From: an uncultured Actinomycetes bacterium
Lineage (GTDB): Bacteria; Actinomycetota; Thermoleophilia; RBG-16-64-13
Direction: 5' to 3'
Length of the DNA: 64,000 nt
Assembly: GCA_963706025.1 (NCBI GenBank)
Contig: CAVPLM010000003.1
Span: 192,001 to 256,000, forward strand
Shown: positions 375 to 31,767 of the stretch, piece by piece
Layout: every line of letters starts with the position of its first letter
How positions within the stretch are numbered: position 1 is the first letter of the stretch
Notes under the pieces: model-generated
What the model was told of the DNA's origin: nothing
The model's input: only the letters and a program-made list of their open reading frames with translations
Database searches by the model: none
Position numbers and translations under genes: made by a program

Positions 375-1757
375 GTGGGAATCTCCGTCCTGGTTTCAAG
401 AGGAAGATCGGTCAGATTCACAGCTTGGCTTTTCATCGGCCTCTTGGCGCTCGCGCTCCTCGCCGGCGCTGTGCTGGCCTCGCCGGCCAAAGCGGCCGTA
501 AGCTACAGTGCCGAGGAGATCGCCTTCGTCCAGCTGCTGAACGATTATCGAGTGAGCAACGGCCTGCAACCCCTGCTGGTCTCGGACATGATCTCGGAGG
601 CCGGTGACCGGCACGATTCCGACATGGGCAAGTACCGGTTCTTCGATCACTACACCAAGGGGTCCGACTGGTTCGCCATCGGGGCTTCGCCCTGGGACCG
701 CATGGCGGCCAGCGGCTACAACTACAACACCTACAAGGGCGAGAACATAGCTGCCGGCTACGCTACCGCCGCGGCCGTGTTCCAGGGCTGGAAGAACTCG
801 CCCGGCCATAATGCCAATATGCTGGGAGCGAACTACAAGGTACTGGGCGTGTCACTGGTGTACGTGAGCGGTTCGCCCTACGGCTCCTACTGGACCACCG
901 ATTTCGGCGGCTATGTCGATCCCACGGCCCACAGCGTTGGCTCTCCACCGTCGTCGACCACGACCACGGTCGCCCCCACCACGACTACCACGGTAGCGCC
1001 GACCACCACCACTACGGCGGCGCCGACTACCACGACCACTAAGGCTCCCACCACAACGACGCAAGCGCCGACGACCACCACCACCAAGCGGTCGACCACG
1101 ACCACGACCAAAGTCCCCCCGACGACGACCACAACCGTCAATGTCCCGCCCCCGACTACGACCACGACCACCACGCCCCAGTCCACCACCACGACGACGG
1201 TCGCCACGCCCGTCTTCTCCGACGTCTACCCCAACACGCTCTACGCTGCTGAGATCAAGTTGTTGGCCAAGCGCGGGATCATAAGCGGCTACGGAGACGG
1301 GACCTTCAGGCCGAGCAAGCTGGTCACTCGCCAGCAGTTCGCGAAGATGATCGTCCTCACCCTCGGCTACGACGTCAGCCCGTTGTCGGCCTGCGGCTTC
1401 AAGGACGTGGATGATCGACTGGACCCCAACGACCCGCTGTATCCGGCCGGTTATGTGGCCGCGTGCGCGGCTGCCGGCATCACCGTGGGCAAGACGCCCG
1501 ATACCTTCGGGCCTTGGGACAACATCACCCGGGCCCAACTCATCACCATGGTGGCTAGGGCCGCCCGCCTGCCTGATCCGCCTGCCGGCTACGCGCCGCC
1601 CTTTGGAGAATTCTCCCCCGTCCACTATCCGTGGGCGATCAAGGCAGCTGCGGCGGGCGTACTGGATGGGCTTGCGGGCATGGGTCCCGGCTTCGACTTC
1701 TGGGTACCCGCCACCCGAGCCGAGGTATGCTTGCTGCTCGCCGGCCTGCTGGAATAG
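375..1757 (+). CDS. Secreted CAP (SCP/YkwD-like) domain protein with Thr/Pro-rich linker and SLH domains
   Basis: GTG at 375 after AGGAGG; signal peptide; CAP motifs (LNDYR, GENIAAG, WKNSPGHNANML); T-rich linker; SLH repeats (FSDV..GIISGYGDGTFRP..VTRQQFA). Confidence 0.9.
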   Translation: MGISVLVSRGRSVRFTAWLFIGLLALALLAGAVLASPAKAAVSYSAEEIAFVQLLNDYRVSNGLQPLLVSDMISEAGDRHDSDMGKYRFFDHYTKGSDWFAIGASPWDRMAASGYNYNTYKGENIAAGYATAAAVFQGWKNSPGHNANMLGANYKVLGVSLVYVSGSPYGSYWTTDFGGYVDPTAHSVGSPPSSTTTTVAPTTTTTVAPTTTTTAAPTTTTTKAPTTTTQAPTTTTTKRSTTTTTKVPPTTTTTVNVPPPTTTTTTTPQSTTTTTVATPVFSDVYPNTLYAAEIKLLAKRGIISGYGDGTFRPSKLVTRQQFAKMIVLTLGYDVSPLSACGFKDVDDRLDPNDPLYPAGYVAACAAAGITVGKTPDTFGPWDNITRAQLITMVARAARLPDPPAGYAPPFGEFSPVHYPWAIKAAAAGVLDGLAGMGPGFDFWVPATRAEVCLLLAGLLE

Positions 1758-1781
1758 CCGGCCTGCTGGAATAGCCGGCCT
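1740..1781 (+). repeat. Tandem 17-bp duplication (gccggcctgctggaata, ~2.4 copies) covering the CAP-SLH stop codon
   Basis: Directly visible in the sequence. Confidence 0.9.
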
Positions 1782-1894
1782 ACCCCCAGCCGGTTTCCCC
1801 CCCATGTCGGAGCCACGCGACCGCCTGGTCACGAGGCTCCGTGCCCGGTAGAGGGTCCAGGACGATCTGCTCGATTACGACGCGGACACTCCAG

Positions 1895-3340
1895 CTATTC
1901 TGAAACCGCCGCCTGGTCGATCTCGGTTCTGCCCAGCCAGAAGCACGCCAGCGGTGCGGGGACCTTGAGGGCTAACACCTGAGTCGAGGACGGTAACTCA
2001 ACTACACCGAAATCACTGACGTCCTTGGTTATGACGTAACCGCGCTGTACCTTGCGAGCCTCGCAGAACTCAACAAGCCCCTTGAGCGAGGCCGCTCCGG
2101 TATTCGCCGAGCGGTACTTCACTTCGAAGGGGACGAGGCGGCCGGCAACATCTGCAATGATGTCGACCTCGTGGCCCGACCGACCCCTCCAGTATGAAAA
2201 GCCGACGCTGTTCCGGTAGTAGCGCGTGTAGACGTGTTTGAAAAATGCAGTCTCCACGGCGCCACCGAGAGCAGTGTCGTCTTCGAGGAGGGCCCTCCCC
2301 TTGAGAAGGACGCTTGGTCCGATCGCTGGGTCCGCTAGATAGACTTTGGCTCTTCCGCGGAGCACCTCTTTCCCGTATCCGAAAGGCAGCAGCCGATAGA
2401 CAAGGTGGGTCGCCTCCAGCAAATCTATGAAGCTTGCGACAGTAGGTCGTTTCAGCTGCAGTTCTTTGCAGATTCCGGCAATATCGAGGATGCCCCCATT
2501 ATGAAGGCAGAGGTATAGGAAGACTTGCTCAAGCTCGATGACCCGCCTGACGCCAAAAAGGGCGGTCATGTCGCGCTTCAGCACTTTGTCGACGATATCC
2601 TCCCGCAATAGCCTCTGGCCGGTCACAATATTGTCGGCAAGCGCAACCTGAGGAAAGCCGCCACGAAGGAGGTACTCGTTGAACAGCGGCACGAGCGGTT
2701 TGGCATCCTGCGCGACCTTCACGAATTGCTTCGGAGACCATTCAAACAGCTTGGCGAGAGAGATGACCTCCGCTACTTGTGGTATCTCCGCCCTCCGAAT
2801 GTTCAGGTACTCGTAGAAGGAGAGAGTCGCCAAACGGATGGTGTGCCACCTGCCGACGCCCGACTCTTGTCCCTCGCGCGAAAGCGGGGTTGCAGACCCC
2901 GTCACGGCTATGCGGCGGCGCTTCTCGAAGTCCACCTGGTGCTTGAGCCACGTCTGCCAGTCCTTGACAACCTGGATCTCGTCAAGGAACAAGTACTGGG
3001 GACCTTCCGCCGGCGAATCGTGCTCCCGCCAAAGCCGCAGGACTGTCTCCAGCCCTACCAGCTTGAGCAGGGGATGATCGAACGTCGCATAGAGAATGTT
3101 CTGAGCAGGAACACCCTGGTTCAGTAGGTCCTCGATCGCCTGCAGAAAAAGGGTGGTTTTACCCACTTGCCGTGCTCCCGAAAGAAGAAGGGCCCGGCCC
3201 CCAGGCGGGTTCTTAGCCCAGGCCGCTATTTCTGCAAATGCGGCCCGTCTCCAGACAGGTAGTTCGAAGAAGCGGCTGCCCGCCCACCAAGGGTTGAACT
3301 GCCGAAGTACGGCGTAGAGCTCGGCATCTGTTGCAATCAT
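1895..3340 (-). CDS. AAA+ ATPase (AAA_14 / DUF4143 family) with C-terminal restriction-endonuclease-like fold
   Basis: Walker A GARQVGKTT, Walker B LFLDEIQ, TGS, YLLRGGFP, KVYLADP, and C-terminal HEVD..EVK; AT-rich upstream region. Confidence 0.88.
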   Translation of the reverse strand: MIATDAELYAVLRQFNPWWAGSRFFELPVWRRAAFAEIAAWAKNPPGGRALLLSGARQVGKTTLFLQAIEDLLNQGVPAQNILYATFDHPLLKLVGLETVLRLWREHDSPAEGPQYLFLDEIQVVKDWQTWLKHQVDFEKRRRIAVTGSATPLSREGQESGVGRWHTIRLATLSFYEYLNIRRAEIPQVAEVISLAKLFEWSPKQFVKVAQDAKPLVPLFNEYLLRGGFPQVALADNIVTGQRLLREDIVDKVLKRDMTALFGVRRVIELEQVFLYLCLHNGGILDIAGICKELQLKRPTVASFIDLLEATHLVYRLLPFGYGKEVLRGRAKVYLADPAIGPSVLLKGRALLEDDTALGGAVETAFFKHVYTRYYRNSVGFSYWRGRSGHEVDIIADVAGRLVPFEVKYRSANTGAASLKGLVEFCEARKVQRGYVITKDVSDFGVVELPSSTQVLALKVPAPLACFWLGRTEIDQAAVSE

Positions 3341-3474
3341 GGCTCAGATTCTACCACTGCAGTCTAATTAGTGAAAGTGTACTTTAACTATTGCGTGTAT
3401 TTAGTGCGTTTGGCTGGCTTTTGCGTGCTAAGCAGCTGCCTGAGCCGGCCGCGGCGACCGTGGCAAGTAACAGT

Positions 3475-3584
3475 CCGGGCCCGCCCTGAGAGCGGACTCG
3501 GACGTGCCTGAAAGGCTCTATTACGTAGACAAGCCGAACCGCGTCGGCCATTGTTGTATTTCTGCCCCTGACTGGTCCTGAAAG
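3475..3584 (-). repeat. Degenerate copy of the 3' end plus terminator of the 14148-15176 gene, fused to a conserved 34-bp arm (att-like scar)
   Basis: Hairpin ccgggcccgccctgagagcggactcgg resembles the 14072-14112 terminator; the minus strand encodes ..MADAVRLVY; arm 3551-3584 is 29/34 identical to 8261-8294. Confidence 0.75.
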
Positions 3585-3628
3585 CAGCAAGTCAGAAGGA
3601 CAAGGGCGAGGTAGCGAGTCGGGTGGGT

Positions 3629-3657
3629 TTGACCGATCCTGGCTTGGGGCATATAGA
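3629..3657 (+). promoter_or_regulatory. Housekeeping sigma-type promoter of groESL
   Basis: TTGACC-17bp-TATAGA immediately upstream of CIRCE. Confidence 0.75.
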
Positions 3658-3666
3658 GTGTACAAG

Positions 3667-3693
3667 TTGGCACTCAGAGGCAACGAGTGCCAA
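3667..3693 (+). promoter_or_regulatory. CIRCE operator (HrcA binding site)
   Basis: TTGGCACTC-N9-GAGTGCCAA versus consensus TTAGCACTC-N9-GAGTGCTAA, upstream of groES. Confidence 0.95.
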
Positions 3694-3772
3694 TCCCACC
3701 AGAGGCGTTTCATCGCGCGTTCGAGGCGAGAGCAATCCAGCACCCGAACGTGAGTACAGGAGGTTATTGCGC

Positions 3773-5762
<1,990 letters not shown>

Positions 5763-5806
5763 AGAACGTCAACTCCTATCAGGGCCCAAGAGGCCCACTA
5801 GGAGCA

Positions 5807-5880
5807 GGGGGGCCATCGCGGGCCAGCGGGTAACCATGTGGAGCCCGCCGTAGCCTGCGATGGCCCCCATTTTCTTGTAT
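5807..5880 (+). terminator. Probable intrinsic terminator after groEL
   Basis: gggggccatcgcgggc...gcctgcgatggccccc stem followed by attttcttgt. Confidence 0.6.
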
Positions 5881-5965
5881 TGAGCGGTGACGAACTCGTC
5901 ACCATGTAACTGACCGGGACGGACGGGAACGAACCGGATAGCAGGGTTCGTGACCCTCCGGTCGC

Positions 5966-7054
5966 TCAACTGCGGCCGGTCCGCTTGTGGTAGTCCTTTG
6001 CCGCCTTGTGGACGATCTTCGACTTGCGCTCATTCTCCGCACGGAGACGCGCATCCGTCTTTGCCGCGGCGAACTGCGCCTCGCCCATGAGTTTGTGATA
6101 GCTGGCCAAGCGCTCGGACGGCAGCGTTCCTGACTCGACAGCAGCCCGTACCGCGCAGCCCGGTTCGTCGTTGTGCGTGCAGTCGCGGAAACGGCAAGAT
6201 CGGGAGGCCTGGTCTATCTCCGGGAAGACCGAGGTGATGCCCTCCTCCGACCCGGTCAGGCCAAACGCCCGGAGCCCGGGAGTGTCGATGAGCAGGCCGC
6301 CGCCCGGCATCTGGATCAGCTCGCGAGCCACGGTCGTGTGCATGCCGCGCCCGTCGCTCACGCGGACTTCGCGCGTCGCTTGCCGCTGCTCGCCGAGGAG
6401 GGAGTTGATGAGCGTGGATTTCCCGGCGCCCGAAGGGCCGACCAGAACCGCGGTGCGATGATCCGAGATGTATTCCAGGATCGGCTGAATGCCGTTACCG
6501 GCGAGCGCGTTCATGACGAGCACTTCCGCCCCGAGCGCGACCGACTCCACGGCTGCACGGGCTGCATCTGGGTCGGCGGAGAGATCCGCCTTCGTGAGCA
6601 CCACCACGGGGACGGCCCCCGAGTCCCATGCCACAGAGAGCTCGCGCTCGATACGGCGAACGTTGGGCGGCTCGGCGATCGGGTGAACGACGAGCACAGT
6701 ATCGATATTGGCGGCCAACACCTGGACGTCGGAGGTCTTCCCGGGATCACCGCGCGTGATGGCGCTGGCGCGCTCAAGTACTGCCTCGATAAACGAGGTG
6801 TCGAGGCCGTCGGAGGCCAGCACCGCCACCCAGTCGCCGACAGCGGGCAGATCCGCCACACCGCTGGCGGACTTCAAGAGACGGGCGGACAGCGTCGCGC
6901 GGACGACCCCGTCTGATGTCGCTACCAGGAGACTGCCGCGGTCGCCGCGGATAACGCGGCCAGGCTTCAGACCATCCGCAGCGTGGGGTTCGAAGAGCGC
7001 CTGCCAGCGAGGGGAATAGCCGAGTGCTCGAAGTGGGGAAGTGTCAGGATTCAT
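5966..7054 (-). CDS. rsgA: Ribosome small subunit-dependent GTPase A
   Basis: PAVGDWV, AANID, TKAD, GPSGAGKST, DTPG, C-terminal CRFRDCTHNDEPGC Zn site. Confidence 0.95.
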   Translation of the reverse strand: MNPDTSPLRALGYSPRWQALFEPHAADGLKPGRVIRGDRGSLLVATSDGVVRATLSARLLKSASGVADLPAVGDWVAVLASDGLDTSFIEAVLERASAITRGDPGKTSDVQVLAANIDTVLVVHPIAEPPNVRRIERELSVAWDSGAVPVVVLTKADLSADPDAARAAVESVALGAEVLVMNALAGNGIQPILEYISDHRTAVLVGPSGAGKSTLINSLLGEQRQATREVRVSDGRGMHTTVARELIQMPGGGLLIDTPGLRAFGLTGSEEGITSVFPEIDQASRSCRFRDCTHNDEPGCAVRAAVESGTLPSERLASYHKLMGEAQFAAAKTDARLRAENERKSKIVHKAAKDYHKRTGRS

Positions 7055-7218
7055 CCGATGGAGTCAATTTGCCTCCTCTTAGATTCTGCATGAACTATAG
7101 CCGCTATTCCTCCGATGACGGGAACTCCCGCCGTGTCCGGACCCCCTGCACTACTCTGGCGTTTGAGCAGGCCCCCGCCGGGGTAGCTCGGCTTCACAGA
7201 ACGAAGAGGGGAGAGAAC

Positions 7219-7362
7219 ATGCTCTGGCTCATCCTGTTCATCATCATCGTGCTCGTCGTCTTCGGCTTGGGCTTCGTCTTCAAGGCCCTGTTCTGGGTGG
7301 CACTGGCGCTGTTCATCGTGTGGTTGATCTCTCTCGTCGTCTCGCTGTTCCGCCGCCGCTAG
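7219..7362 (+). CDS. Small hydrophobic membrane protein (47 aa)
   Basis: MLWLILFIIIVLVVFGLGFVFKALFWVALALFIVWLISLVVSLFRRR; purine-rich RBS. Confidence 0.75.
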   Translation: MLWLILFIIIVLVVFGLGFVFKALFWVALALFIVWLISLVVSLFRRR

Positions 7363-7414
7363 AGCGAGATAGACGGGAACACGGCCGAGAGCACGAAGGG
7401 AAGGTGAGACAGGC

Positions 7415-7525
7415 ATGCCGAGGATGGGTAACCGCCGGGGGAACGCGCTGTGGTGGGCGCTGGCGGCGCTGGTCGTGGTGGTGATCGTGGTGGTAGTGGT
7501 CCTCTTCCTGGAAGGCATACTCTAG
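7415..7525 (+). CDS. Small single-TM protein (36 aa, below the ORF-track cutoff)
   Basis: MPRMGNRRGNALWWALAALVVVVIVVVVVLFLEGIL*; RBS-like gggaaggtg upstream; sits between two co-oriented genes. Confidence 0.55.
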   Translation: MPRMGNRRGNALWWALAALVVVVIVVVVVLFLEGIL

Positions 7526-7545
7526 TCGCGGGAGGCACGATTAGC

Positions 7546-8070
7546 ATGTTGAAGGCAAGCGAACTCATCCATCGTCTGCTGATAACCCGCGACGCGGGGG
7601 AGCAGGTAGGGAAAGTCGAGGACCTGGTCGTCGACCAAACGGGCAGCCGAGTCTTGGGAGTACTGGTCGACGAGAAAGGCTGGTTCAGCGGCGCCCACGT
7701 CGTACGCTGGCCGGCAGTGCTTAGCGTAGGCGCAGACACCCTCGTCATCGATTCCAAGACCAGCGTAGTGAAGGCTTCAGAGGTCCCGGAGATGAAAGAC
7801 GTGTTCGATCGCGGCAACGTGCTCGCCGGAGTCCGCGTACGCACCACCGACGGGCAGGATCTGGGCAAGTTCGAGGCCTTCTACTTCGACGAGAAGAGCG
7901 GAAGGATCTTGGGTTATGAGCTTTCCGGCGGTACCGGCCGGAAACGACGTTCCCGCTCCTTCCTACCTACGCCCACCAGTTTCGAGGCGGGCAAGGACGT
8001 GGCCTTCGTGTCGCCCGAGGCGGCCGACACCTTGCAGGACTTGGAAGAGGCACTCAAACAGAGCTGGTGA
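7546..8070 (+). CDS. Tandem PRC-barrel domain protein (YrrD-like)
   Basis: MLKASELI..GEQVGKVEDLVVD and VRTTDGQDLGKFEAFYFDEKSGRILGYELS; GGAGG RBS. Confidence 0.85.
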   Translation: MLKASELIHRLLITRDAGEQVGKVEDLVVDQTGSRVLGVLVDEKGWFSGAHVVRWPAVLSVGADTLVIDSKTSVVKASEVPEMKDVFDRGNVLAGVRVRTTDGQDLGKFEAFYFDEKSGRILGYELSGGTGRKRRSRSFLPTPTSFEAGKDVAFVSPEAADTLQDLEEALKQSW

Positions 8071-8143
8071 GCTTAGGCGGGTCAGGGCTGTTGGGAAGTG
8101 CCCTCGTCCGGCTCAGTGCGCGCTCCCAGCGAGACAAGGCCTC

Positions 8144-8294
8144 GCTTCAGGCCCTCGAGATGACACCGGGCCCGCCGCGAAGCGGGCCCGGTGTCATCTC
8201 AATCGGTGCTACAGAGCCAAAAACGCTACTGGGCTTTCACAAACATGACAGAATCGGTCATTGTGGTATTTCTACCCCTGGCTGGTCGTGTAAG
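8144..8294 (-). repeat. Copy of the 3' end plus terminator of the 14148-15176 gene, fused to the conserved 34-bp arm (att-like scar)
   Basis: 8151-8191 is identical to 14072-14112 (41 bp); minus strand encodes MTDSVMFVKAQ* versus VADAVKFVPAQ*; arm shared with 3551-3584. Confidence 0.85.
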
Positions 8295-8307
8295 ACCCTA
8301 CATAGAA

Positions 8308-8362
8308 CTCGAAAACCGTTGTGCCGCGCAAGCGGTACCGGGGGTTCGAATCCCCCTCTCTC
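8308..8362 (+). pseudogene. 3' half of tRNA-Ser(CGA) (att-like remnant)
   Basis: Starts at the anticodon loop CTCGAAA; long variable arm gtgccgc-gcaa-gcggtac; T arm ggggg-TTCGAAT-ccccc; partial acceptor strand; no 5' half and no CCA. Confidence 0.85.
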
Positions 8363-8416
8363 AACCTGGTCCGGCAAGGAATTCATTGGGCTCCGCCGCA
8401 ACCCGGGGCGCACGGG

Positions 8417-21411: not shown

Positions 21412-21524
21412 CAGGATCTCCTTGGGGAGAGTTTGGCACCCGACAGCATAGCGTACGAAGTGGCAGGGTAGACCCCGTCGGAGGTGATCCGCGATGAAAG
21501 GCGGTCAGGGAGTATCAGTGGCGA

Positions 21525-21851: not shown

Positions 21852-22030
21852 GCTGTCAGGACCGTCACTCACGGTGCCTCTGTCTCTCTGCGCCGGCAGG
21901 CCGGCCGCGGTCAATTGCCAGTAGGTGGCCTGGACTGCGCCACAAGACAAGTATCGGCCGGGGGGGCGGCGGGGTTTAGCGAAGAGCAGCAGATGGGCCG
22001 TTCCCGCAGTCTCCCCGGCACGAGCAGGCC

Positions 22031-22816: not shown

Positions 22817-23179
22817 TACCTCCTCCTAGCACCCACGCACGAATTATCATGGAAGCGAGCGCTTGGTCCCGTATCCCGTTTTCGACGTCGGAGCTTCGTT
22901 TCCCCCCGCCGCGCGAGTGGGTGCGACCATGGTCGGGATGGTGTCGAGAGAATTGGCGCATGTGCCATTCGTTCGGCTAAGATGGGCTCGTCATACCCGG
23001 CCGGCCAACTTGCAGACCGGGCTCGACAGGACACGAGTGAGGGCGCGCAAGAAGGCGCACCGCGGAGGGTTCATGGGGCTGAACCGGGCAAGACGAGCCG
23101 GCCTTCATATCGCGTCCATGCTCTGGGGCGGCCTGTTCAGTCCACAGGTGTGGTGATCGTGACCCAGAAGGAGCCCGTG

Positions 23180-25483
23180 GTGGGTGAGACGACACAGAAC
23201 GGACGAAAGCGTCGTCGCTTTCCCCTTGCCAGCATCGTCGTGGCAGTCATCTTGTTCCTACAGGTGGCCTTCTACTTCCTGGTCGGGATAGCCGATCTGT
23301 TCTCCGTGGGAGTGCTTGGCAGCAAGCCCGCAGCTGACTTCATCGTGGAGGGCGCGCTCAGCCCCGAGGGGAGCCTACTGGTTGCTGGCGGGTTTGCTCT
23401 GGTTTTTGGAGCCTTGGGCCTAGCTGTCATGGTCGGTCTCTTCTTTGGGCGGAGATGGGCTTGGGCGTCCGCCATGACCTGGGCCACTCTGTCCCTCGCG
23501 CTTGGTCTCGTATACTACTTCCGAGGGGACCCCAGATACTGGAGCATGCTTGGGGCCGTGGTATTCGTACTGGCTCTCAACCAGGCTTCCGTACAGCGGG
23601 CATTCACCAAACAGAGCGCGCGGGTGACTCCCGCGACGGGCTCCCAGCAGAGTGACATGGTCTCGGCGCCGACGGAAGCTTCGAACCTGGAGCTGCTGCG
23701 CACCTTCGAACCCGTGCTGCGCTTCACTAAGGGAGAGCGCTTCTTTCCAACCGACGTTGAGAGATACGTGTCTCGATCGAGCCTCTGGGTGCGTCATCCC
23801 GACGGCAAGGAGGAGGTGCTGGCGAGGAGAGGTGAGCTCGACATGGAAGGGCTTGCCCGGCACCGAGAGCATGTCTTCGGTACCGTGGAGTATCTTCGCT
23901 TCAACGATACCCTGAGCGTGGCTGAAGGCGCCCGGGCGCTCTCCGAGGTGCGCCGACTACGCAAACAGGATGACGCAGTCTTTCGTCCGGGAGTGGGCCG
24001 GCTTGCCCGGGTTGGGTTTGCCCCTCGAGTAGTCGATGCCTTGTTCTCTCTTTCGCTACTTCTGAGGGGAAAGGTACATCCGGTGACGGCAGCTGCCGCC
24101 GAACTCGAATACCACCGAATGTTGCTCCAAGACCAGAGGCACCCATACTACGGCCGGGTTGCCCGCCGAGGAGGCTGGACCATACTCCAGTACTGGTTCT
24201 TCTACTGCTACAACAGCTGGCGGTCAGGGTACGAGGGGGCGAACGATCACGAGTCCGACTGGGAGAACATCCTCATCTACCTGTATGAAGAAGACGGCCG
24301 TCTTCATCCTGAGTGGGTCGGTTATGCATCGCACGATTTCCATGGCGACGATCTGCGCCGGCGCTGGGACGACCGCGGGCAGCTCGAATTGGTGGAAGGA
24401 CACCCGGTGGTATGGGCGGGAGCCGGATCTCACGCCTCGTATTTTCAGCAAGGCGAGTACCAGGCAAAGGTAGCGCTTCCCGTGCCCAACTGGATACGGG
24501 CGGTGTCCAGAGGACTGACCTTCTTTTGGACTCGCATTCTTGGGCAGGCCGGCAGAACGTCGGACCCGCTGCGCATCCCCTTTGTGGACTACGCACGAGG
24601 CGACGGAACGAGCATCGGTCCAGGCCAAGAGCACGGATGGGAGCCGGTCGTCATCGACGAGTCCACTCCCTGGGTCAGTCGCTATCGCGGCCTGTGGGGC
24701 CTCTTCGCGAACGACCCCACCTCGGGCGAGAACGCTCCTGCCGGGCCGATGTACGAGCGTAGCGGTGAGCCTCGGCGCTCTTGGTACGACCCCCTGGGGT
24801 TTGTCGGGCTGGATAAGGAGCCGACCCCGCCGGCTGCCAAAGACTTGCTTGCGCAAGAAAGCGCCCGGATCGAGCAACGTCAGCTTGACGTGGACCGGCT
24901 TATCGGACAGAGGCTCTCTGAGTTGCACGTCATCAGCGCCGAGATGCTGGCGATGGAAGGCAACCCGAATCTCCGCACCCGCTACCTCAAGTCGGCCGAT
25001 GAAACAGTCTCCGTGAGAGACGATCTCCGTCGTCTGCAGCAGGAGCTCACCGAGAATGAAGCGGTGCTCGGGGCTGTCAGGGAGAAGATGGCCACACTGG
25101 AAGAAGGCCGGAGATCCGACCCTCGGGCTCACATCAAACAGCTTGCGCAGCCTGTGCCTCAGGCTGACTTACGGCTCAATCGAGCGGCTGAGGCGTGGGG
25201 TGCGGTAAGCCTGAGCCTTATCCTGCTCGGCATCGTGGCTTTGCTGGTTCTTGCTCGCGATCATCTCTGGATCGGGCTCGTAGTCATGATCGGGGCCGTG
25301 CTGCTTCTGGAGGCGATCCTTCGGGGCCACTATGTTCGTACGCTCGGAGGCATCGCTGCGATACTTGCCGTGATCTCAGCCATACTCCTCATCGTCCACT
25401 TGTGGCTGTGGGTCATCGCGATAATCCTGGCCGCACTAGCATTGTTTCTGATGGTGCAGAAACTCCGGGAGCTGTGGAGCTAG
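23180..25483 (+). CDS. Large membrane protein with central Vps62/NPP1-like soluble domain and coiled coil
   Basis: N- and C-terminal TM bundles; FEPVLRF..GERFFP, LQYWFFY..N, HESDWE, GSHASY; start placed after AAGGAG. Confidence 0.7.
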   Translation: MGETTQNGRKRRRFPLASIVVAVILFLQVAFYFLVGIADLFSVGVLGSKPAADFIVEGALSPEGSLLVAGGFALVFGALGLAVMVGLFFGRRWAWASAMTWATLSLALGLVYYFRGDPRYWSMLGAVVFVLALNQASVQRAFTKQSARVTPATGSQQSDMVSAPTEASNLELLRTFEPVLRFTKGERFFPTDVERYVSRSSLWVRHPDGKEEVLARRGELDMEGLARHREHVFGTVEYLRFNDTLSVAEGARALSEVRRLRKQDDAVFRPGVGRLARVGFAPRVVDALFSLSLLLRGKVHPVTAAAAELEYHRMLLQDQRHPYYGRVARRGGWTILQYWFFYCYNSWRSGYEGANDHESDWENILIYLYEEDGRLHPEWVGYASHDFHGDDLRRRWDDRGQLELVEGHPVVWAGAGSHASYFQQGEYQAKVALPVPNWIRAVSRGLTFFWTRILGQAGRTSDPLRIPFVDYARGDGTSIGPGQEHGWEPVVIDESTPWVSRYRGLWGLFANDPTSGENAPAGPMYERSGEPRRSWYDPLGFVGLDKEPTPPAAKDLLAQESARIEQRQLDVDRLIGQRLSELHVISAEMLAMEGNPNLRTRYLKSADETVSVRDDLRRLQQELTENEAVLGAVREKMATLEEGRRSDPRAHIKQLAQPVPQADLRLNRAAEAWGAVSLSLILLGIVALLVLARDHLWIGLVVMIGAVLLLEAILRGHYVRTLGGIAAILAVISAILLIVHLWLWVIAIILAALALFLMVQKLRELWS

Positions 25484-25611
25484 TCCGACCTTCCCCGAAG
25501 TCGGCCGGGAGGCCACGGATACCCGGGGACGTATGAGGTTTGGAAAAAACTGGTTCCGGAAATTTATACCGCCAGGCGTATCCGCCAACCACGAAATGAG
25601 GAGGGAACACA

Positions 25612-26014
25612 ATGAAAAGGCCGATAGGAGTATGGATCATAGGCATCCTCGCGCTTATTGTCGCGATCCTTCGCATCTTGGGCGCGGTTCACGGCCCTGG
25701 GTGTCGGCGGGCTGGCGATGACCGGCACACTGGGCGAGGAGGCGGGGAGTCTCGGGGCAGAGGCCCTGGGGGTCGGGATAGCGTCGCTGATTAGTAGGGT
25801 CATCCTTGTCCTGATCTTTGCCCTGGCCTTCCTGGGACTGCAGCCCTGGGCCTGGGCGGCCCTGATGATCATTCAGTTGCTCACCATAGTGGTGGTAGTC
25901 GTGCAGTTCATCTTCGACGGCTTTCACTGGTCTTCGCTTACTACCATCATCATCCCGGTGATCATAGTCTTCTACCTCACCAGACCGAGAATCAGGCAGG
26001 CGTTCGGAGACTAG
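25612..26014 (+). CDS. Small 4-TM membrane protein (frameshift near 25680)
   Basis: MKRPIGVWII... continues in another frame to ..WAW..FYLTRPRIRQAF. Confidence 0.65.
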
Positions 26015-26084
26015 CCGGTACAGCCGGGACCCGCGGATGCAGGATCTGACCCAAAGACCAGACTCAGAACCAGGAGGCCAAGTA

Positions 26085-26411
26085 GTGATAGTAACCACCA
26101 CATCGAGCATCGAGGGAATGAGGATCACGGAATACAAGGGAGTCGTCAGCGGTAACGCTATTCACGGCATCAATATCGGGAAAGACTTCAAGGCTATCGG
26201 ACGGAACATTGTCGGGGGACGCTCGCAGGCGTACGAGGACGAGCTCGGCAAAGCTCAGTCCGAAGCGATGGCTGAGATGGAAAGCGCCGCCGCCGATCTG
26301 GGAGCGAGCGCGGTCGTTGCCGTGAGGCTGGACGTCGAAGGCCTCGGAGCCCAGAACAACATGCTCCTGGTCAGCGTTACCGGGACTGCGGTGGTCGCGC
26401 AGCCTCTCTAG
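26085..26411 (+). CDS. YbjQ/UPF0145 family protein
   Basis: VIVTTTSSIEG..Y.GVVSG..RNIVGGRSQAYE..MLLVSVTGTAV. Confidence 0.92.
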   Translation: MIVTTTSSIEGMRITEYKGVVSGNAIHGINIGKDFKAIGRNIVGGRSQAYEDELGKAQSEAMAEMESAAADLGASAVVAVRLDVEGLGAQNNMLLVSVTGTAVVAQPL

Positions 26412-26470
26412 GACCCGTGCCCGGGATATCGGCTCGCCCGGACACTAGACCGGCCGGGCAGAGAACGAGC

Positions 26471-26496
26471 GAGGGCCGTCCTTCGGGGCGGCCCTC
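26471..26496. terminator. Hairpin between convergent ybjQ-like gene and aqpZ
   Basis: gagggccgtcc-ttcg-gggcggccctc. Confidence 0.6.
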
Positions 26497-26500
26497 TCAA

Positions 26501-26538
26501 TGCCGCGCAAGCGGTACCGGGGGCTCGGACCCCCCCTC
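26501..26538 (+). pseudogene. Second, more degenerate tRNA-Ser 3' remnant
   Basis: tgccgcgcaagcggtaccggggg is identical to the 8308 copy; T-loop is mutated (ctcggac). Confidence 0.75.
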
Positions 26539-26572
26539 AAAGCGGCTCGATCCCGAATCGCCAGACGGGGCT

Positions 26573-27283
26573 TCAGGCAGGCTCCGGTTCGGCCTTGGGC
26601 TTCCCGATCAGATAGTGGTAGAGCAATCCTCCGACGGCGCCACCGATGATGGGCGCCACGATGAACAACCAGAGCTGGGAGAGAGCCCAGCTGCCCTGGA
26701 ATATGGCCGGCCCGATGCTTCGGGCCGGGTTGACCGAGGTACCGGTCACCGGAATACAAATCAAGTGGATGAGGGCCAGGGTCAGACCGATGGCGAGCGG
26801 GGCGAAACCCTTGGGTGCGCGCTCGTCGGTGGTCCCCATGATGACGAAGATGAAGATCAGGGTGAGCACGAACTCGGCCACAAAGCCCGCGGCCAGGCTG
26901 TATCCCCCGGGGGAATGCTCGCCATAGCCGTTGGAGGCGAAGCGGTCGGCAGCGGAGAAACCATCCACTCCGCTGGCGATGACGAAGAGCACCGCGGCGG
27001 CCACGATGGCCCCGATCACCTGAGCAACCATATACGGGCCGACATCTCTACCCGGGAAGCGCCTTCCTAGCCACAGCCCGAACGTCACCGCCGGGTTGAA
27101 ATGGCCTCCCGAGATGTGACCCACGGCATAGGCCATGGTGACCACGGAGAGGCCGAACGCCAGTGCTATCCCCAGAAAGCCGATACCAAAGTCCGGGAAG
27201 GTTCCGGCCAGAACGGCGCTCCCACAACCTCCCAGAACGATCCAGAACGTGCCGAAGAACTCGGCTATCAAGCGCCTTCCCAT
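26573..27283 (-). CDS. aqpZ: Aquaporin Z
   Basis: [43 protein letters not shown]. Confidence 0.96.
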
Positions 27284-27600
27284 ACCCACCTCCGCTCCAA
27301 GGATTACCCGCTGGCGGCGACGGACTTGGACCGGGTCTAGCCCGCGGTCCCGACTCCGCCTCCCAACCAGTCACAGTGTAGTGGATGCGCCTCGCATTAT
27401 GGAATCCTTTGCTTGCGCGACTCTGGCCCACACTGTAGAGTCCGCCGTGTGAACGGTAGGGGTGTTCCGGAAACGACCGTCAGAGAGAATCCCATGTCCA
27501 CTTCCGAGATGGCTGCCGGCGAGCTGCCCGGCTGCGACTCACGTATCGGCCTGGCGCCAAATCCGAGGCTGGAGACCGCTGCCGAGCCCGGGGGCTCGTC

Positions 27601-28701
27601 GTGAGAACCATCTCCACGGAGATCGCGTCACCGGCACCTGCCAAGCGCTTGATCGTCGTGCGTAGCATCCACGCCGGCCGCGACCTCGAGATGTTCCTGG
27701 TCACGGCGATCGCGACGATCCTCATCGTTCGCGCCGCCCTGGCGGCCACCGGCTGGCCACAGCTCGGCGGCGGCAAGATCCACGTCGCCCACCTCCTGTG
27801 GGGCGGGCTCGGTATGCTCGTCGCGCTCATCTTGTTCATGGTCTTGCAGGGGCGGCTTTGGAAACAGGTGGCGACGCTGCTCGCCGGCATCGGCTTCGGG
27901 CTGTTCATCGACGAGCTCGGCAAGTTCATCACGTCCGACAACGACTACTTCTTTCAGCCGGCCGTCGCCATCATCTACCTGCTGTTCGTGATGCTGTTCC
28001 TCGTCGGGACGGCGATTGTCCGCTGGGTCCGCATCTCGCCACACGCGGCGCTTGTGAACGCGTTCAGCCTGGCCCAGGAGGCCGTCATCCGCGACCTGGG
28101 CGAGGCGGAGCGCACCCAGGCCCTTACGTTGCTGGCGCAATGCGACCAGACCGAGCCCCTAGTGCAGGACTTGACACAGATGTTCAGCGCCATGCGCTCG
28201 CCGGCGAAGACGCCACCGCGCTTCTATATGCGCCTCAAGACGCGGCTCCGGACCTTCTACCAGTCACTGCTCGGGAAGCGCTGGCTCAAGGCACTCGTTG
28301 TGGGCTGGTTCGTGCTCGTCGCTCTCGGCAACCTGCTCCTTGCCATTCTCGTCGTCGTTGTCGCCGCGGCGGGGGAGTCGGGCTCACTGACTCTAGACTT
28401 CTGGAGGTACGGACAGCTGGTCTCTTCCGCCATCGGCGGCGTCCTAGTGGTTGTCGGCCTGATCCGCTGGCGCAGCTCGCGTCTGGCTGCGTACCGCTGG
28501 TTCGAGCGCGCGCTGCTGTTTACCATCTTCGTCACCCAGTTCTTCACTTTCTATAACAACCAATTCACGGCCGTCTTTGGGTTGGTCATCGCGCTCCTCA
28601 CCTATGTGACGATCAGGCTCATGATCCGCGAGGAGGAAGCTCGCGAGGAGTCGCGGTCGCCACACGAATCTGAGGGGTCTGCCCCAAGCCGGCTAGACTG
28701 A
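27601..28701 (+). CDS. Conserved hypothetical multi-TM protein
   Basis: HVAHLLWGG, GIGFGLFIDELGKF, DYFFQP; about 9 TM segments. Confidence 0.8.
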   Translation: MRTISTEIASPAPAKRLIVVRSIHAGRDLEMFLVTAIATILIVRAALAATGWPQLGGGKIHVAHLLWGGLGMLVALILFMVLQGRLWKQVATLLAGIGFGLFIDELGKFITSDNDYFFQPAVAIIYLLFVMLFLVGTAIVRWVRISPHAALVNAFSLAQEAVIRDLGEAERTQALTLLAQCDQTEPLVQDLTQMFSAMRSPAKTPPRFYMRLKTRLRTFYQSLLGKRWLKALVVGWFVLVALGNLLLAILVVVVAAAGESGSLTLDFWRYGQLVSSAIGGVLVVVGLIRWRSSRLAAYRWFERALLFTIFVTQFFTFYNNQFTAVFGLVIALLTYVTIRLMIREEEAREESRSPHESEGSAPSRLD

Positions 28702-28949
28702 GGCTATCGCGCGGGCTGGCGGCCGGCCTGCTACGGCGGATAGTCATCGACAGCGCTGGACCCCCCAGGCGAAGCCGATATCGGGGTTGTCGGCCGCGAC
28801 GAGGAAGGGATCAGAAACGCGGCGCTCAGCGGCAGACGGGGCGGCAACCTCCCCGGCCGGCCGAGTCCAGCTATCTCCGCGGCGCCATCTTTCCACCTCA
28901 TTGTCCTGCAATCGCCAATCAAACGGTTGCTCGATTCGGCGAGAGCGAG

Positions 28950-29108
28950 GTTCCACCTTTGGTTGTATTCGCTTCCGAGCCCCACTCCGTTACCCTGCAG
29001 TACCCGGTCGGCGGGGGAACGGAGGGTGAACGGGGGGTCCAAGGTGAGCACTTTCATCCTGGCAGTGGACCGCCCGGCTGAAGAGGCGGACTTCGCACTT
29101 CTGCGACA
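28950..29108 (+). pseudogene. ssb 5' remnant 1 (promoter plus codons ~18-41) ending in arm gcacttctgcgaca
   Basis: gttccacctttggttgtattc...taccctgc matches 31329-31377; encodes VNGGSKVSTFILAVDRPAEEADF. Confidence 0.85.
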
Positions 29109-29262
29109 TCCGCCTCAGCTCGCACCTCTTTATCAGACCTGCTGAGATCCTCGATCTCCTCTCAGGTAACGAACTCTCCGCGCGGCACCGACCGACTGCT
29201 CCGTATCCGCTGTCTGGCGAGGCGGTCGTGGCGGGTGCTCGTGAGTGCGGGCCCGGTCGCTC

Positions 29263-30567
29263 CTAAAGGTCCTGCCGCGCACGTGGCGGGACCAGCTTCG
29301 TGCGTGAAGGCTCGCGCACGAGAAGGAGGATCAGGATCGCGCTGAGCACCAGCAGAAGAGCGGCGGTGACGAAAGCCCTGCTGGCGCCAAAGCGGTCGTA
29401 GATCCACCCTCCCAAAAGCGGACCGATCACTCCGCCCAATGCAGCCGCTGCGGTGTAGTATCCCAGCGCTGAACCCTGGTGGGCACGGTCTGCAAGGTCG
29501 GTCACCAGTGCCTCCTCGGCGGGTATCGCGGCGGCGAAGGCCGCAGCCTCGAGCACCCACAGAACGGCCAGCGGCCAGAGCGACCGCACGAATACGACCG
29601 CAACGGTAGCCAGCGCGGCCACCACCAGCGCGGCCACGATCGGTGGGCGCCGTCCGACGCGGTCGCTGATGCCGCCCAGTCGCGAGGGGAGCACCGACCC
29701 GGCGACGGCTGCCGGCAGGAAGGCGAGGGCAAGGGCGAGCATGCTGGTCGAGACGTTGTCGAACAGGTACGGCATCAGGATCGGGCCCAGGAGCGCGGTG
29801 GCGACCGCCGTCAACACCACGATACCCATCAGGAGCCTCAACTGGCCGGGGAGGCGCCACGCTCCACCCCCGGGGGCCCTTTGATCCTCGGCAGCTCCAG
29901 GTGTCTTCTCGACGCGGCTCCCGCCTTGAAAGAGAGTCTCGGGGATCTTCCGCCATACGATCGCGGCAGCGACCAAGGTAGCGACTGCGTACCCGAGGAA
30001 GAGCAGGCGCCAGCCGCCGACGAGCGTCAGCCATCTTCCGGTTTCGTCGCCTTCGAGCAAACCGAGAAGAGCGAAGCCCACGAGAGACCCTACGAGGGTG
30101 CCGCGAAAGGCCATTTCTTCGATGCGCCCGTATTCCCTTCCGCGACAGTCGACAGGCGCTAGGTCCGACACGATGGCCAGAGCCGCAAGCCACGTAAGAC
30201 CCGATCCCACGCCCTGCGCGACCTGGGCGAGATACAGACCGCCCACCCCTGATGCGAGGCCAAAGGCAACGTTCGATAGGGCATAGGCCAGCAGGCCGGC
30301 GATCAGGAAAGGCCGCCGGCCGAGACGGTCGAGCCCGCGCCCGATGAGGGGCTGGGAGATGACCACGATCGCCGCGTAGGCGGAGAACAGCCCACCGATC
30401 GCGAGAGGGCCGGCTCCCATCCCGCGTGCGATGAGGGGCACGCCGAACAACAGCATGCCGAAAGGAAAGGACGTGAGGAACACGCTGAGCCGCAGACGCC
30501 GGAGGTGCCGGTCGTTAGCAGAGGTTCTCGCGTCGTCCGATGCGAGGGGTGCGCCCGAGTCAACCAC
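29263..30567 (-). CDS. MFS transporter
   Basis: 12 TM segments; G..LDRLGRRP and GGISDRVGRRP MFS motifs. Confidence 0.92.
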   Translation of the reverse strand: MVDSGAPLASDDARTSANDRHLRRLRLSVFLTSFPFGMLLFGVPLIARGMGAGPLAIGGLFSAYAAIVVISQPLIGRGLDRLGRRPFLIAGLLAYALSNVAFGLASGVGGLYLAQVAQGVGSGLTWLAALAIVSDLAPVDCRGREYGRIEEMAFRGTLVGSLVGFALLGLLEGDETGRWLTLVGGWRLLFLGYAVATLVAAAIVWRKIPETLFQGGSRVEKTPGAAEDQRAPGGGAWRLPGQLRLLMGIVVLTAVATALLGPILMPYLFDNVSTSMLALALAFLPAAVAGSVLPSRLGGISDRVGRRPPIVAALVVAALATVAVVFVRSLWPLAVLWVLEAAAFAAAIPAEEALVTDLADRAHQGSALGYYTAAAALGGVIGPLLGGWIYDRFGASRAFVTAALLLVLSAILILLLVREPSRTKLVPPRARQDL

Positions 30568-30680
30568 TGCAGGCTCCTATTCGTGTCGAATCTGTCCCGT
30601 ACTCTCTCACACTCGACTGGCCAGAGATAGCATGCAGGGAAGCGCAACCTGTGCCTCGGGAAATGGGGCTCCATTCGGGA

Positions 30681-30784
30681 TTCCACCTCGAGGTCGAGGG
30701 GGTGAACGGCGGCTCGAAGGTGTCGAGCTTCATCCTGGCGGCAGATCGCAACGCCGAAGAGGCGAACTCCGCACTTCTGCGACA
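30681..30784 (+). pseudogene. ssb 5' remnant 2 ending in the same arm gcacttctgcgaca
   Basis: Encodes EVEGVNGGSKVSSFILAADRNAEEANS; short promoter trace ttccacct. Confidence 0.85.
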
Positions 30785-30828
30785 CTGTGTCTGCTCCGGC
30801 ACGTGCCTGTCAGTCTGTGCTTGAAGCT

Positions 30829-30963
30829 TTGATCAGCGACGCAGTGAAGTCCGCATTGGCCGAAGATGCCGAGGATCTCCAAGCGTTCGAAGAGCGTGCT
30901 TCAGAGCCCGACCTTCTGTTCGAGACCGTGGTGAAGGCTCTGAAGGCGGATGGGAAGATTTAG
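30829..30963 (+). pseudogene. 5'-truncated CopG/RHH-type antitoxin
   Basis: ISDAVKSALAEDAEDLQAFEERASEPDLLFETVVKALKADGKI* overlaps the toxin start; no N-terminal DNA-binding domain. Confidence 0.7.
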
Positions 30964-31210
30964 GGTCTTCATCAAGCCCTCCGCCGTCCATGAGATCGAG
31001 GGGATCGCTGAAATGAAGCAGCGACAACGGATCGTCGCAAGTATCGGTGCCTTGAGTGACGATCGCCGCCCTCCGGGCAGCGAGAGGCTGACCGGCCGGG
31101 AGCAATACCGTGTGCGGCAAGGTGCCTATCGGATTGTCTACGCGATCGAGGACGACCGCCTCGCGGTGTACCTGGTCAAGGTGGGTCATTGAAGCAGCGT
31201 CTACCGGTAG
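30950..31210 (+). pseudogene. RelE/ParE-family toxin with premature stop
   Basis: YRVRQGAYRIVYAIED..VKVGH-TGA-SSVYR-TAG; family terminus is typically VGHRxxVYR. Confidence 0.8.
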
Positions 31211-31479
31211 GTTCCATCGGCGAGTCGGATTGCGCCCGACTAGCGGAGGATCAGAGCAACGACGTCGAAGTCGTCCGCCGGCACCTTGAGGTCTTGAGGC
31301 TGGAACCAGTAAGTCCACTCTTTCGGTAGTTCCATCTTTGGTTGTATTCACCCAGGGCGCGCCTCCCGCTACCCTGCTATCCCGGGCCGCCGCTGAAAGC
31401 TGAGGAAAGGCCGCGCGGCGGATAGGACACCATCCAATCCCGGAGGGACGAAACCAGTACTGAGAGGGAGGAAGGAACC

Positions 31480-31767
31480 ATGAACAGCGTGCACCTGATC
31501 GGCCGTCTGGCCACCGACGTGGACGTGAAGGAGGTGAACGGCGGGTCCAAGGTGAGCAGCTTCATTCTGGCGGTGGATAGGAATGCGGAGGAGGCGGACT
31601 TCTTCCGGATCAAGGCTTGGAACTCGCAGGCCGAAGCCGCGGGAGACCACTTGGGCAAGGGCCGGCGGATAGCCGTCGAAGGCTCCCTTCGTCAAGACGT
31701 CTACGAGAAAGACGGGGAGGAGCGGAAGGCCGTATCGGTGGTCGCCAAGAGGTTGGAGTATCTCTAG
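31480..31767 (+). CDS. ssb: Short single-stranded DNA-binding protein (OB fold only, no acidic tail)
   Basis: MNSVHLIGRL..FILAVDR..ADFFRIKAW..LGKGRRIAVEGSL. Confidence 0.9.
   Translation: MNSVHLIGRLATDVDVKEVNGGSKVSSFILAVDRNAEEADFFRIKAWNSQAEAAGDHLGKGRRIAVEGSLRQDVYEKDGEERKAVSVVAKRLEYL

Follow-up and report, generated by a model that had tools for sequence, protein, structure and literature searches.

How does a bacterial chromosome come to hold a row of small, unrelated gene blocks, each bounded by a fragment of a target gene, where nothing that could have inserted them is encoded? The question is raised by a 64,000-nucleotide stretch (the window; contig C3, positions 192001–256000) of G000, a metagenome-assembled genome (MAG; 3.66 Mb, 30 contigs, 64% G+C; 92% complete, with 7.3% contamination) of an uncultured Thermoleophilia-type actinobacterium from freshwater sediment. 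A sequence-only reading had described about 30 kb of it as a single zone of cassette accretion, marked by three families of scars: 3′ ends of a golvesin gene, 3′ parts of tRNA-Ser and 5′ parts of ssb. A repeat search recovers all three families in place. We conclude that the zone is probably two independent hot spots of decayed, recombinase-less derivatives of large serine recombinase (LSR) elements, which today could be moved by homologous recombination alone. The parts of this reading differ in strength: integration by a serine recombinase is the likely origin, RecA-driven movement today (between repeated blocks or through flanking homology) is plausible, and an active cassette system working in trans is unlikely.

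Comparison with relatives shows where the foreign DNA begins and ends. G001, G002 and G003 belong to the same genus as G000, G013 belongs to another genus, and the family set comprises 61 genomes; the DNA comparison behind the backbone used G001–G003 and two further genomes. The backbone order in relatives runs from a gene for SLH and CAP domains (153–1757, plus strand, Pfam; the left anchor of the golvesin hot spot) through golvesin to orf21494 and on to ssb and LuxR, and the order is identical in G011, G016 and G013. In G002, window 1–1766 with the SLH/CAP gene is matched at 78.7% and golvesin starts 163 bp further on; 14148–21467 and 21521–21990 are matched at 77.3% and 83.0%, and the ssb region corresponds to window 31472–40006 (77.9%). 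Relative to G002, which has neither, 1767–14147 and 21991–31471 are inserts. G001 lacks the ssb-side insert and holds a different insert of 4.4 kb (SLH/TIG proteins) at golvesin. The DNA between (14148–21990, about 7.8 kb; golvesin, NHL, YmdB, NAD-binding, DUF1015, orf20372, OsmC and orf21494) is syntenic in G001, G002, G003, G011, G016 and G013, and is therefore ordinary chromosome without cassettes; it makes up a quarter of the proposed zone. The proposed zone holds in that its scar-flanked blocks vary among close relatives, with boundaries that coincide with the scars, but it resolves into two hot spots around this backbone, one at golvesin (1767–14147) and one at ssb (21991–31330), with three islets each.

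Islets that G000 has in common with G003 or G001 are 89–97% identical, compared with 76–80% for the backbone. In G003, 8225–14183 is matched at 94.5–95.9% at the same site and the ssb-side islets at 89–97%, and the backbone at only 76–78%. Composition and tetranucleotide usage, of which the latter had been proposed as a check, set apart only the first golvesin islet, I1 (58.5% G+C; tetranucleotide distance reached by 3% of random genome chunks); the other islets are not distinct from the genome, which fits exchange within the clade.

The window encodes no tyrosine or serine recombinase, as had been claimed, and its 12 unnamed open reading frames (ORFs) have no match in NCBIfam or PHROGs and nothing phage-like among them. 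The inventory of the rest of the genome gives eight matches to PF00589 (tyrosine recombinase), none within the window, and none to PF00239 (Resolvase domain) in all of G000; tblastn finds no LSR remnant there. Genes that combine Resolvase, Recombinase and zinc-ribbon domains do occur at the two sites in relatives. A survey of the family for Resolvase domains points to G013, which encodes a full LSR of 480 amino acids (Resolvase, 6e-30; Recombinase, 1e-10; Zn_ribbon_recom, 2e-7); its gene ends beside the golvesin 3′ end, and the surrounding backbone is the same. Golvesin homology resumes there at GCGTCGGC, which is the junction core of the window (GTCGGC), and the element also encodes a Type ISP restriction enzyme. 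At the ssb hot spot of G055, one ORF has a recombinase zinc-ribbon domain (Pfam); this remnant is 37% identical to the G013 LSR over 246 amino acids, to the last residue (E 3e-41). The earlier suggestion that the two protein-gene sites were served by related recombinases is supported by this match.

Nine loci in the family genomes encode proteins with at least 37% identity to the G013 enzyme: five adjoin ssb fragments, one adjoins golvesin and three adjoin nothing recognised. The five at ssb (G072, G052, G006, a pseudogene in G008 and the remnant in G055) have ssb broken at the same place, and in G072 the LSR gene is followed by P (one half of the attachment site), the ssb 3′ part and the LuxR-type neighbour, which identifies the true locus. 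With two further MAG contigs (L162 and L176) that have an LSR beside an ssb junction, LSRs lie at seven ssb loci and one golvesin locus. Pfam found no integrase in the islands of relatives that we examined. The LSR, absent from the window and from G000, is present at the same junctions in relatives, and we therefore regard the islets as derivatives of such elements and not as members.

The attachment (att) sites themselves can be read from the junctions. LSRs pair attP with attB, and pair attL with attR only with a directionality factor. Our alignment covers 13 junction rows labelled attL, from several genera, and three attR junctions. About 12 of the 13 attL-labelled ssb rows consist of the ssb 5′ part, GAGGCGGACTTC and GCrmTTCTGCkACA; one labelled row (L103) continues into ssb like an unoccupied copy. 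The attB reads ...GCGGAG GA GGCGGACTTC TTCCGGATCAAGG, attL keeps its left side and continues as GGCGGACTTC GCrmTTCTGCkACA, and attR (three junctions) reads TGTAkGCAGAAy-N13-15 GAGGCGGACTTC TTCCGG.... The attR motif TGTAkGCAGAAy, 13–15 nt before GAGGCGGACTTC, is the reverse complement of the outer P′ motif, such that P′ (GGCGGACTTCGCAmTTCTGCkACA) mirrors P (TGTAkGCAGAAy-N13-15), and the ssb attP is therefore an imperfect palindrome of about 52 bp. For ssb, the sites correspond to what is expected of an LSR, with an attP that is an imperfect inverted repeat of about 50 bp and hybrid attL and attR halves. The ssb arm of the sequence-only reading is therefore the P′ half of this palindrome. By symmetry, the centre would lie near the GA of codons 37/38, and the visible break falls at codon 41 because P′ and B′ share the 10–12 nt that lie just right of it. 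A search of the 61 genomes for the exact attP pattern returned a single natural palindrome copy (G039:C8:126413–126454).

The golvesin site offers four attL junctions and one attR, and the palindrome is seen at ssb alone. TTCTGC, which is the outer motif of the ssb P′ half, also forms the core of the 9-of-13 match noted earlier, and a similarly placed TTCTGC in the golvesin arm may be its counterpart for the related enzyme. The weak core said to be common to the two arms (9 of 13 positions) does exist (3556–3568 and 29095–29107), but it is not significant by shuffling and is kept as a hint only, in view of the relatedness of the recombinases: for the four arm pairs compared, 87, 337, 1335 and 1727 of 2000 shuffles reached the best ungapped match. 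No dif- or Xer-like similarity at the junctions was seen by eye, without a formal test.

At the ssb hot spot, the live gene (31480–31767, plus strand, Pfam) encodes a short paralogue of 95 amino acids without a C-terminal tail and is the second ssb of the genome; the canonical SSB is encoded at C3:803522. The short protein, mostly 95–100% identical among closer genera, is reminiscent of competence-type SsbB. Promoter block and live gene together span 31331–31767 (plus strand); the block is intact, and attB would lie at about 31570–31625. Two ssb-like copies (29024–29108 and 30700–30784, corresponding to 31532–31616) are 79% and 69–81% identical to the live gene, and both of these 5′ fragments then run into GCACTTCTGCGACA. 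Each ssb islet opens with GCACTTCTGCGACA and closes with a block that extends from TTCCACCTTTGGTTGTATTC to ssb codon 41. The islets thereby have B and P′ at the left and a B-type block at the right, the last junction is an intact attB, and neither a P half-site at an islet right end nor an attR was found in the window.

Islet A (21991–28949; cargo assigned by Pfam) is absent from G001 and G002 and is 90–97% identical in G003. It encodes a K+ channel (22031–22816), an unnamed 913-amino-acid ORF (22742–25483), YbjQ (26037–26411), an aquaporin (26573–27289) and another unnamed ORF (27601–28701). The first attL (r1; 28950–29112, plus strand) consists of TTCCACCTTTGGTTGTATTC, an internally deleted ssb 5′ part, and GAGGCGGACTTC with P′ GCACTTCTGCGACA. 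Islet B (29113–30680, 89% identical in G003) contains a minus-strand gene for a transporter of the major facilitator superfamily (MFS; 29263–30567), and is followed by the second attL (r2; 30681–30788, plus strand), an ssb 5′ block with P′ GCACTTCTGCGACA that carries a deletion of about 190 nt relative to its G003 orthologue, which remains complete. Islet C (30789–31330) holds a ParE toxin gene (30950–31192, Pfam) and a short upstream ORF, presumably the antitoxin; the ParE module (30828–31236) also occurs elsewhere on the same contig (C3:762935–763343, 91.7%) and in G003 and G002. Nothing in Pfam, NCBIfam or PHROGs matches the 913-amino-acid ORF; 23250–24057 and 24298–25524 are missing in G003, and a paralogous stretch with 69% identity lies at C5:864965–866773 of G000.

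The 20-nt TTCCACCTTTGGTTGTATTC lies about 130–150 nt upstream of the short ssb in 37 of the 61 family genomes. It is conserved across genera though its surroundings diverge, and it may be a promoter or regulatory site. The ssb hot spot is a general one: at least two close copies of the motif occur in nine of the 61 genomes, and ssb 5′ remnants lie within 10 kb upstream at 7 of the 43 loci with intact ssb (at least 80% identity, species collection). The ssb junction with its arm recurs in G066, G055, G036, G063 and G002. In G003 and at a MAG locus (L111), the live gene is preceded by truncated ssb copies (codons 1–55 and a conserved tail). In the G055 remnant, P is followed by codons 38–55 and the same tail, which looks like integration into such a truncated ‘decoy’ copy; the tail motif does not occur in G000. 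A family MAG (L123, 10001–10415) has a cargo-free tandem duplication in which ssb codons 1–45 are followed by codons 2–95 in another frame. Isolated P′ half-sites of the ssb type (GAGGCAGACTTCGCACTTCTACGACA and a variant) also lie away from ssb in G000 (C14:149748–149773 and C11:107436–107449), and one of them has a tRNA-Phe gene and a tRNA-like 3′ fragment about 700 bp away.

The golvesin hot spot is built on the same plan, with the opposite end of the target gene. The live Golvesin_C gene (14148–15176, minus strand, Pfam) carries a golvesin-end block (14065–14183, minus strand) made up of a hairpin terminator and the last ~36 nt of coding sequence, and each of the three islets closes with such a terminator and a mimic of those nucleotides. 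The block of I2 (8144–8260, minus strand; hairpin 8157–8200) is 80.5% identical to the live end over 118 nt (84% for 8144–8223 and 14065–14144 in the repeat search), and a third, degenerate golvesin end lies at about 3466–3550. I2 and I3 open with the 30-nt arm TTGTKGTATTTCTRCCCCTGRCTGGTCSTG straight after GTCGGCCA. The P′-type arm of I2 is TTGTTGTATTTCTGCCCCTGACTGGTCCTG (3551–3580, plus strand), immediately 3′ of GTCGGCCA, and that of I3 is the 30-nt TTGTGGTATTTCTACCCCTGGCTGGTCGTG (8261–8290, plus strand), which also follows the native golvesin end of G003. The arm is conserved at all four junctions in the genus (two each in G000 and G003), every time directly 3′ of GTCGGCCA.

The outermost remnant of G003 combines a native gene end and native terminator, as in G002, fused at GTCGGCCA to the golvesin arm. 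The inner blocks and the live-gene block all bear a hairpin of the element type and not of the native type; the golvesin 3′ end and terminator of G000, G001 and G003 are therefore not native. On this hairpin evidence, the golvesin blocks appear to descend from one element-borne block.

Cargo differs from islet to islet. I1 (about 1846–3550) consists of an AAA_14/DUF4143 ATPase gene (1895–3340, minus strand) and the degenerate golvesin-end block; on its left, where its own attL has been lost, it joins the native spacer at an illegitimate break. I2 cargo (3581–8143, Pfam) comprises a second groES (about 3770–4066) and groEL (about 4122–5762), rsgA (5966–7054, minus strand), an ORF at 7051–7518, a PRC-barrel gene (7450–8070) and the 3′ remnant of a DUF1003-like gene that reaches 8158. 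The core groESL sits on C5, and the I2 copy is 79.6% identical to it. Synteny around rsgA was tried as a guide and is uninformative because rsgA is itself cargo. I3 (8261–14183) is a P-type ATPase islet with an operon on the minus strand (8403–13869) for a P-type cation ATPase, a Zn-ribbon protein, a cytochrome b561-like protein, a histidine kinase and a response regulator (Pfam). G003 has the operon at the same site (94–96% identity), and G001 has it (match from 8403 to 13867, 96–97%) at an unrelated, scar-free locus.

How cargo was acquired is most legible in I2 and I3. The right end of I2 (7190–8158) is 99% identical to C8:141853–140886 of the same genome, and the identity ends at a 15-nt microhomology, GCTTCAsGCCCTCGA, common to the DUF1003-like gene of C8 and the small-gene remnant of an I3-type end; this is an illegitimate capture of chromosomal genes, mediated by microhomology. 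In I3, a tRNA-Ser(CGA) 3′ fragment with a degenerate downstream arm (8308–8402, plus strand) precedes the operon. The fragment itself (8308–8362) covers 55 nt from the anticodon loop to the 3′ end and is 98% identical to the full genes on C7 and C8. Its closeness to a golvesin arm had been noted; the adjacency stands, but the gap is 17 nt after the 30-nt conserved arm (8261–8290), and not 13. A second degenerate fragment with arm (13870–13925) lies to the right of the operon, followed by the C-terminal remnant of a gene for a 79-amino-acid protein (13990–14085, minus strand). In relatives, this gene lies just downstream of a tyrosine integrase (G001:C6 and G060:C70), and it also adjoins a tRNA-Ser fragment with arm in G036 and G037. 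With tRNA-Ser material on both sides of the operon and the 79-amino-acid remnant, I3 must include part of a tRNA-Ser island array, which supports the proposal that cargo had passed from one site to another. Another tRNA-Ser(CGA) 3′ fragment lies in islet A (26501–26538; 8322–8356 and 26501–26535 are 91% identical in the repeat search). ARAGORN finds no tRNA gene in the window and Rfam finds nothing there at gathering score. The fragments are passengers from the large tRNA-Ser(CGA) arrays elsewhere in the genome; in the window they are not used as the attachment sites that they had been taken for.

These arrays amount to 37 nhmmer matches at E ≤ 1e-3, at C8:41197–130408, C7:76–19353, C5:685595–691191, C10:28456–35797 and C18:7384–15101, and most fragments then carry a conserved arm of about 45 nt that starts CTTCAGAAAGCCAAGAATCG. 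C8, a contig without a tyrosine recombinase, has one full tRNA gene with nine or more fragments after it, spread over 90 kb. The 79-amino-acid family (MAKTYKLTES...; L024:8015–8254, which is G000:C5:682015–682251) occurs in 47 of the 61 family genomes and has no match in NCBIfam or PHROGs. Its mobile copies (70–88% identity) lie just downstream of tyrosine integrases and adjoin tRNA-Ser fragments with arms; the protein could be an excision or regulatory factor.

Taking the anatomy, the variability, the junction sequences and the recombinase adjacency in relatives as observed, we infer a sequence of events, with a healing step and a route through RecA, as follows. Each hot spot would be the chromosomal attB of one LSR clade, with one attB in the last codons of the golvesin-C gene and the other around codons 37–41 of the short second ssb. 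Recombinase-bearing elements would have integrated there, after which the recombinase gene and the P-side junction would have been lost. A copy of the target end (the promoter with ssb codons 1–41, or the terminator with the last ~36 nt of golvesin) would close each islet, such that the target gene would be whole and attB regenerated for the next arrival. The outcome would be a head-to-tail stack of small islets, each P′ arm, cargo and target-end block, loaded with genes for transport, ion homeostasis and stress, an additional chaperonin copy and a toxin–antitoxin pair. Cargo, including the piece of the tRNA-Ser island array, would have been added by illegitimate, microhomology-mediated joins, and present spread and loss would most likely run via RecA recombination between the blocks of 117–290 nt or through the flanking backbone. 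Given that the window has attL-type sites only and that G000 has no serine recombinase, the islets are fossil units for site-specific recombination. A bolder version, which we offer tentatively and consider rather unlikely, makes both sites self-renewing landing pads, where every visit would leave one recombinase-less cassette and a fresh attB, as a gene-collecting platform across the family. The target would be remade by a copy of its own end, truncated decoys (codons 1–55 with the tail) would take insertions at ssb, and the recombinase side would be lost; no resident recombinase would be needed, and RecA would shuffle the cassettes later.

Several observations weigh against derivation from LSR elements as we describe it. 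The swap of recombinase and P for a target-end block was never directly observed; what bears on it are the truncated ssb copies of G003 and L111, the G055 remnant with its decoy-like tail, and the descent of the golvesin blocks from one block. All ssb blocks begin at the same promoter motif, which is unexpected under random healing, and the element-type terminator in the golvesin blocks fits better with elements that bring their own gene end, as in the staphylococcal cassette chromosome (SCC), than with healing. Within the genus (G000–G003), no recombinase-bearing element was seen at either site; the link between golvesin and an LSR comes from one genome of another genus (G013), in which the far end of the element is off the contig and a short-word BLAST for it gave noise only. 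The attP palindrome was pieced together from attL and attR of separate genomes, and its natural copy in G039 has no LSR within 1.5 kb. Outside the genus, a search of the 61 genomes for the golvesin arm with three mismatches matched about as often as reversed-pattern controls, with only the G000 and G003 matches following a golvesin end. A recombinase could be unassembled in a MAG of this completeness and contamination, and the islets other than I1 resemble the genome in composition.

The sequence-only reading had proposed an active, integron-like capture system, in which a recombinase from another locus or from a visiting element would excise and reinsert islets singly. P′ arms are kept across unrelated cargo and across genera, cognate LSRs occur in 17 of the 61 family genomes, and the same cargo is found at different loci, all of which speaks for such a system. 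The sites themselves speak otherwise: the ssb islets have B and P′ at the left and B at the right, without a P half or attR, and attL-type sites alone give no excision of islets as units. G000 has no serine recombinase, and G003 has only two Xer-like tyrosine recombinases and one resolvase of 200 amino acids. Shared cargo breaks at gene ends and not at scars. The integron comparison fails in particular, as there is no integron integrase (no PF00589 match in C3:192001–256000) and no attC-type family in the repeat search or in Rfam at gathering score, although no attC-specific search was made; the junctions are instead LSR attL sites. We consider in-trans capture quite improbable.

A possible, though doubtful, alternative needs no site-specific enzyme for accretion: after one founding event per site, circles of P′, cargo and block, released by recombination between neighbouring blocks, would re-enter any genome by single crossover in its block, with RecA as the only agent. 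The blocks are direct repeats of 117–290 nt, the single element-type terminator in all golvesin blocks suggests common descent, and the layout of attL, cargo, attL, cargo and intact gene is that expected from Campbell-type insertion by homology. Weak hints also come from contigs of other samples, in which 21988 is joined to 28938 (X3, depth 5.6) and 28972 to 31480 (X5, side 22). Neighbouring blocks, however, are about 70–85% identical and partly deleted, which makes them a poor substrate for RecA; differences between the P′ arms of islets fit separate integrations; and in relatives these sites are taken up by elements that still bear a recombinase. In four public runs, contigs often stop near junctions (21988, 29089, 30695/30704 and 31567–31591), and the few joints that skip islets have sides of 20–29 letters and come from contigs rather than reads; we give them no weight as evidence. 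Islands of the tyrosine-integrase type at each of the three targets, with decayed integrase genes, would account for the canonical form of the tRNA-Ser fragments (anticodon loop to 3′ end) and for the I3 remnant of a gene that lies downstream of tyrosine integrases, but that remnant belongs to the tRNA-Ser array piece inside I3. Among the matches listed (150 of 343), none of the tyrosine recombinases of the 61 genomes adjoins a multi-copy ssb junction or a golvesin junction, the islands that we scanned with Pfam have none, and LSRs adjoin junctions at eight loci, all of which leaves this explanation very improbable. A contaminated MAG with contigs misjoined at repeats is harder still to credit: the contamination of 7.3% and the 969-nt stretch that is 99% identical to another contig would be in keeping with it, but I3 at this junction and the ssb-site islets recur in an independent genome, G003, the repeats are diverged and of little length, and contigs from four runs in four studies cover all parts at 90–99% identity. 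Derivation from LSR elements followed by decay remains the reading that we favour.

Gene collection of this sort is itself known, and it is the target genes, golvesin and ssb, that are new. Integration at a protein gene that yields tandem members without a recombinase has precedents, such as SCC at rlmH. Composite SCC islands at rlmH with ΨSCC members that lack ccr are described in bioRxiv 10.1101/336396. Like SCC, the system would use LSRs at the 3′ end of a conserved protein gene that is kept intact, with head-to-tail stacking, some members without a recombinase, and adaptive transport, metal and stress cargo. The golvesin site has the SCC layout, namely insertion at the 3′ end, a restored end, tandem arrangement and recombinase-less members. 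Unlike SCC, the present system belongs to another phylum; it targets, besides the golvesin 3′ end, the 5′ coding part and promoter of ssb, which is unusual; the repeated target piece of the window is 117–290 nt long, compared with about 15–20 nt in SCC; and the ssb islets keep attL-type sites only.

Cis-mobilizable elements (CIMEs) accreted at the 3′ end of fda in Streptococcus thermophilus are likewise integrase-less, tandem leftovers at a protein gene, but theirs are working attL and attR sites for a tyrosine integrase. Our islets differ in enzyme family (serine) and, at ssb, in having no P half or attR, and instead of an intact attL and attR pair their right ends are B-type blocks. The tRNA-anchored, integrase-less arrays of Prochlorococcus tycheposon islands are resembled by the tRNA-Ser(CGA) arrays of G000, in which a full tRNA is followed by many 3′ fragments with arm; in the window, unlike in tycheposon arrays, tRNA fragments lie away from a tRNA gene, inside islets of another site. 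The layout of a classical tRNA-gene island, between a full tRNA gene and a displaced copy of its 3′ part, is present on C8 and C7 and absent from the window. The ssrA islands of Dehalococcoides (McMurdie et al. 2011, PMC3146451) are, with the composite SCC islands, the closest known systems: these are tandem islands with direct repeats of the target end and a CcrB-like serine recombinase beside attL, and some islands lack the integration module and are discussed as cis-mobilizable or fixed. Tandem islands bounded by target-end repeats and module-less members are common to both systems; the Dehalococcoides target is a tmRNA gene with a 20-bp repeat, as opposed to two protein-gene targets with related recombinases here, and 16 islands there keep a six-gene integration module of which the window islets keep no part (PMC3146451). 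In a literature search that did not cover supplements, neither ssb as a target of serine integrases nor genomic islands in Gaiellales came up. Distinctive here are the host lineage, the two targets, the long restoring blocks, the attL-only state and the traffic from the tRNA-Ser array.

The locus provides a worked example of a poorly known, uncultured sediment lineage that collects and exchanges transporters, ion pumps, a spare chaperonin and toxin–antitoxin genes, and it shows cargo traffic between island systems with different targets. The junction sequences suggest two new natural attB/attP pairs for an LSR clade, one of which would fall, unusually, within the 5′ coding part of a gene that nonetheless stays whole. 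A cycle of integration and restoration would, if true, explain open insertion sites in recombinase-poor genomes.

Two further features were seen in the window. A ribonucleotide reductase gene (ORF 39957–42578) contains an intein with a LAGLIDADG homing-endonuclease domain (40006–41147), and this 1.1-kb stretch is missing from G001, G002 and G016. At 1739–1783, the 15-nt unit GCCGGCCTGCTGGAATA is tandemly duplicated across the stop codon of the SLH/CAP gene.

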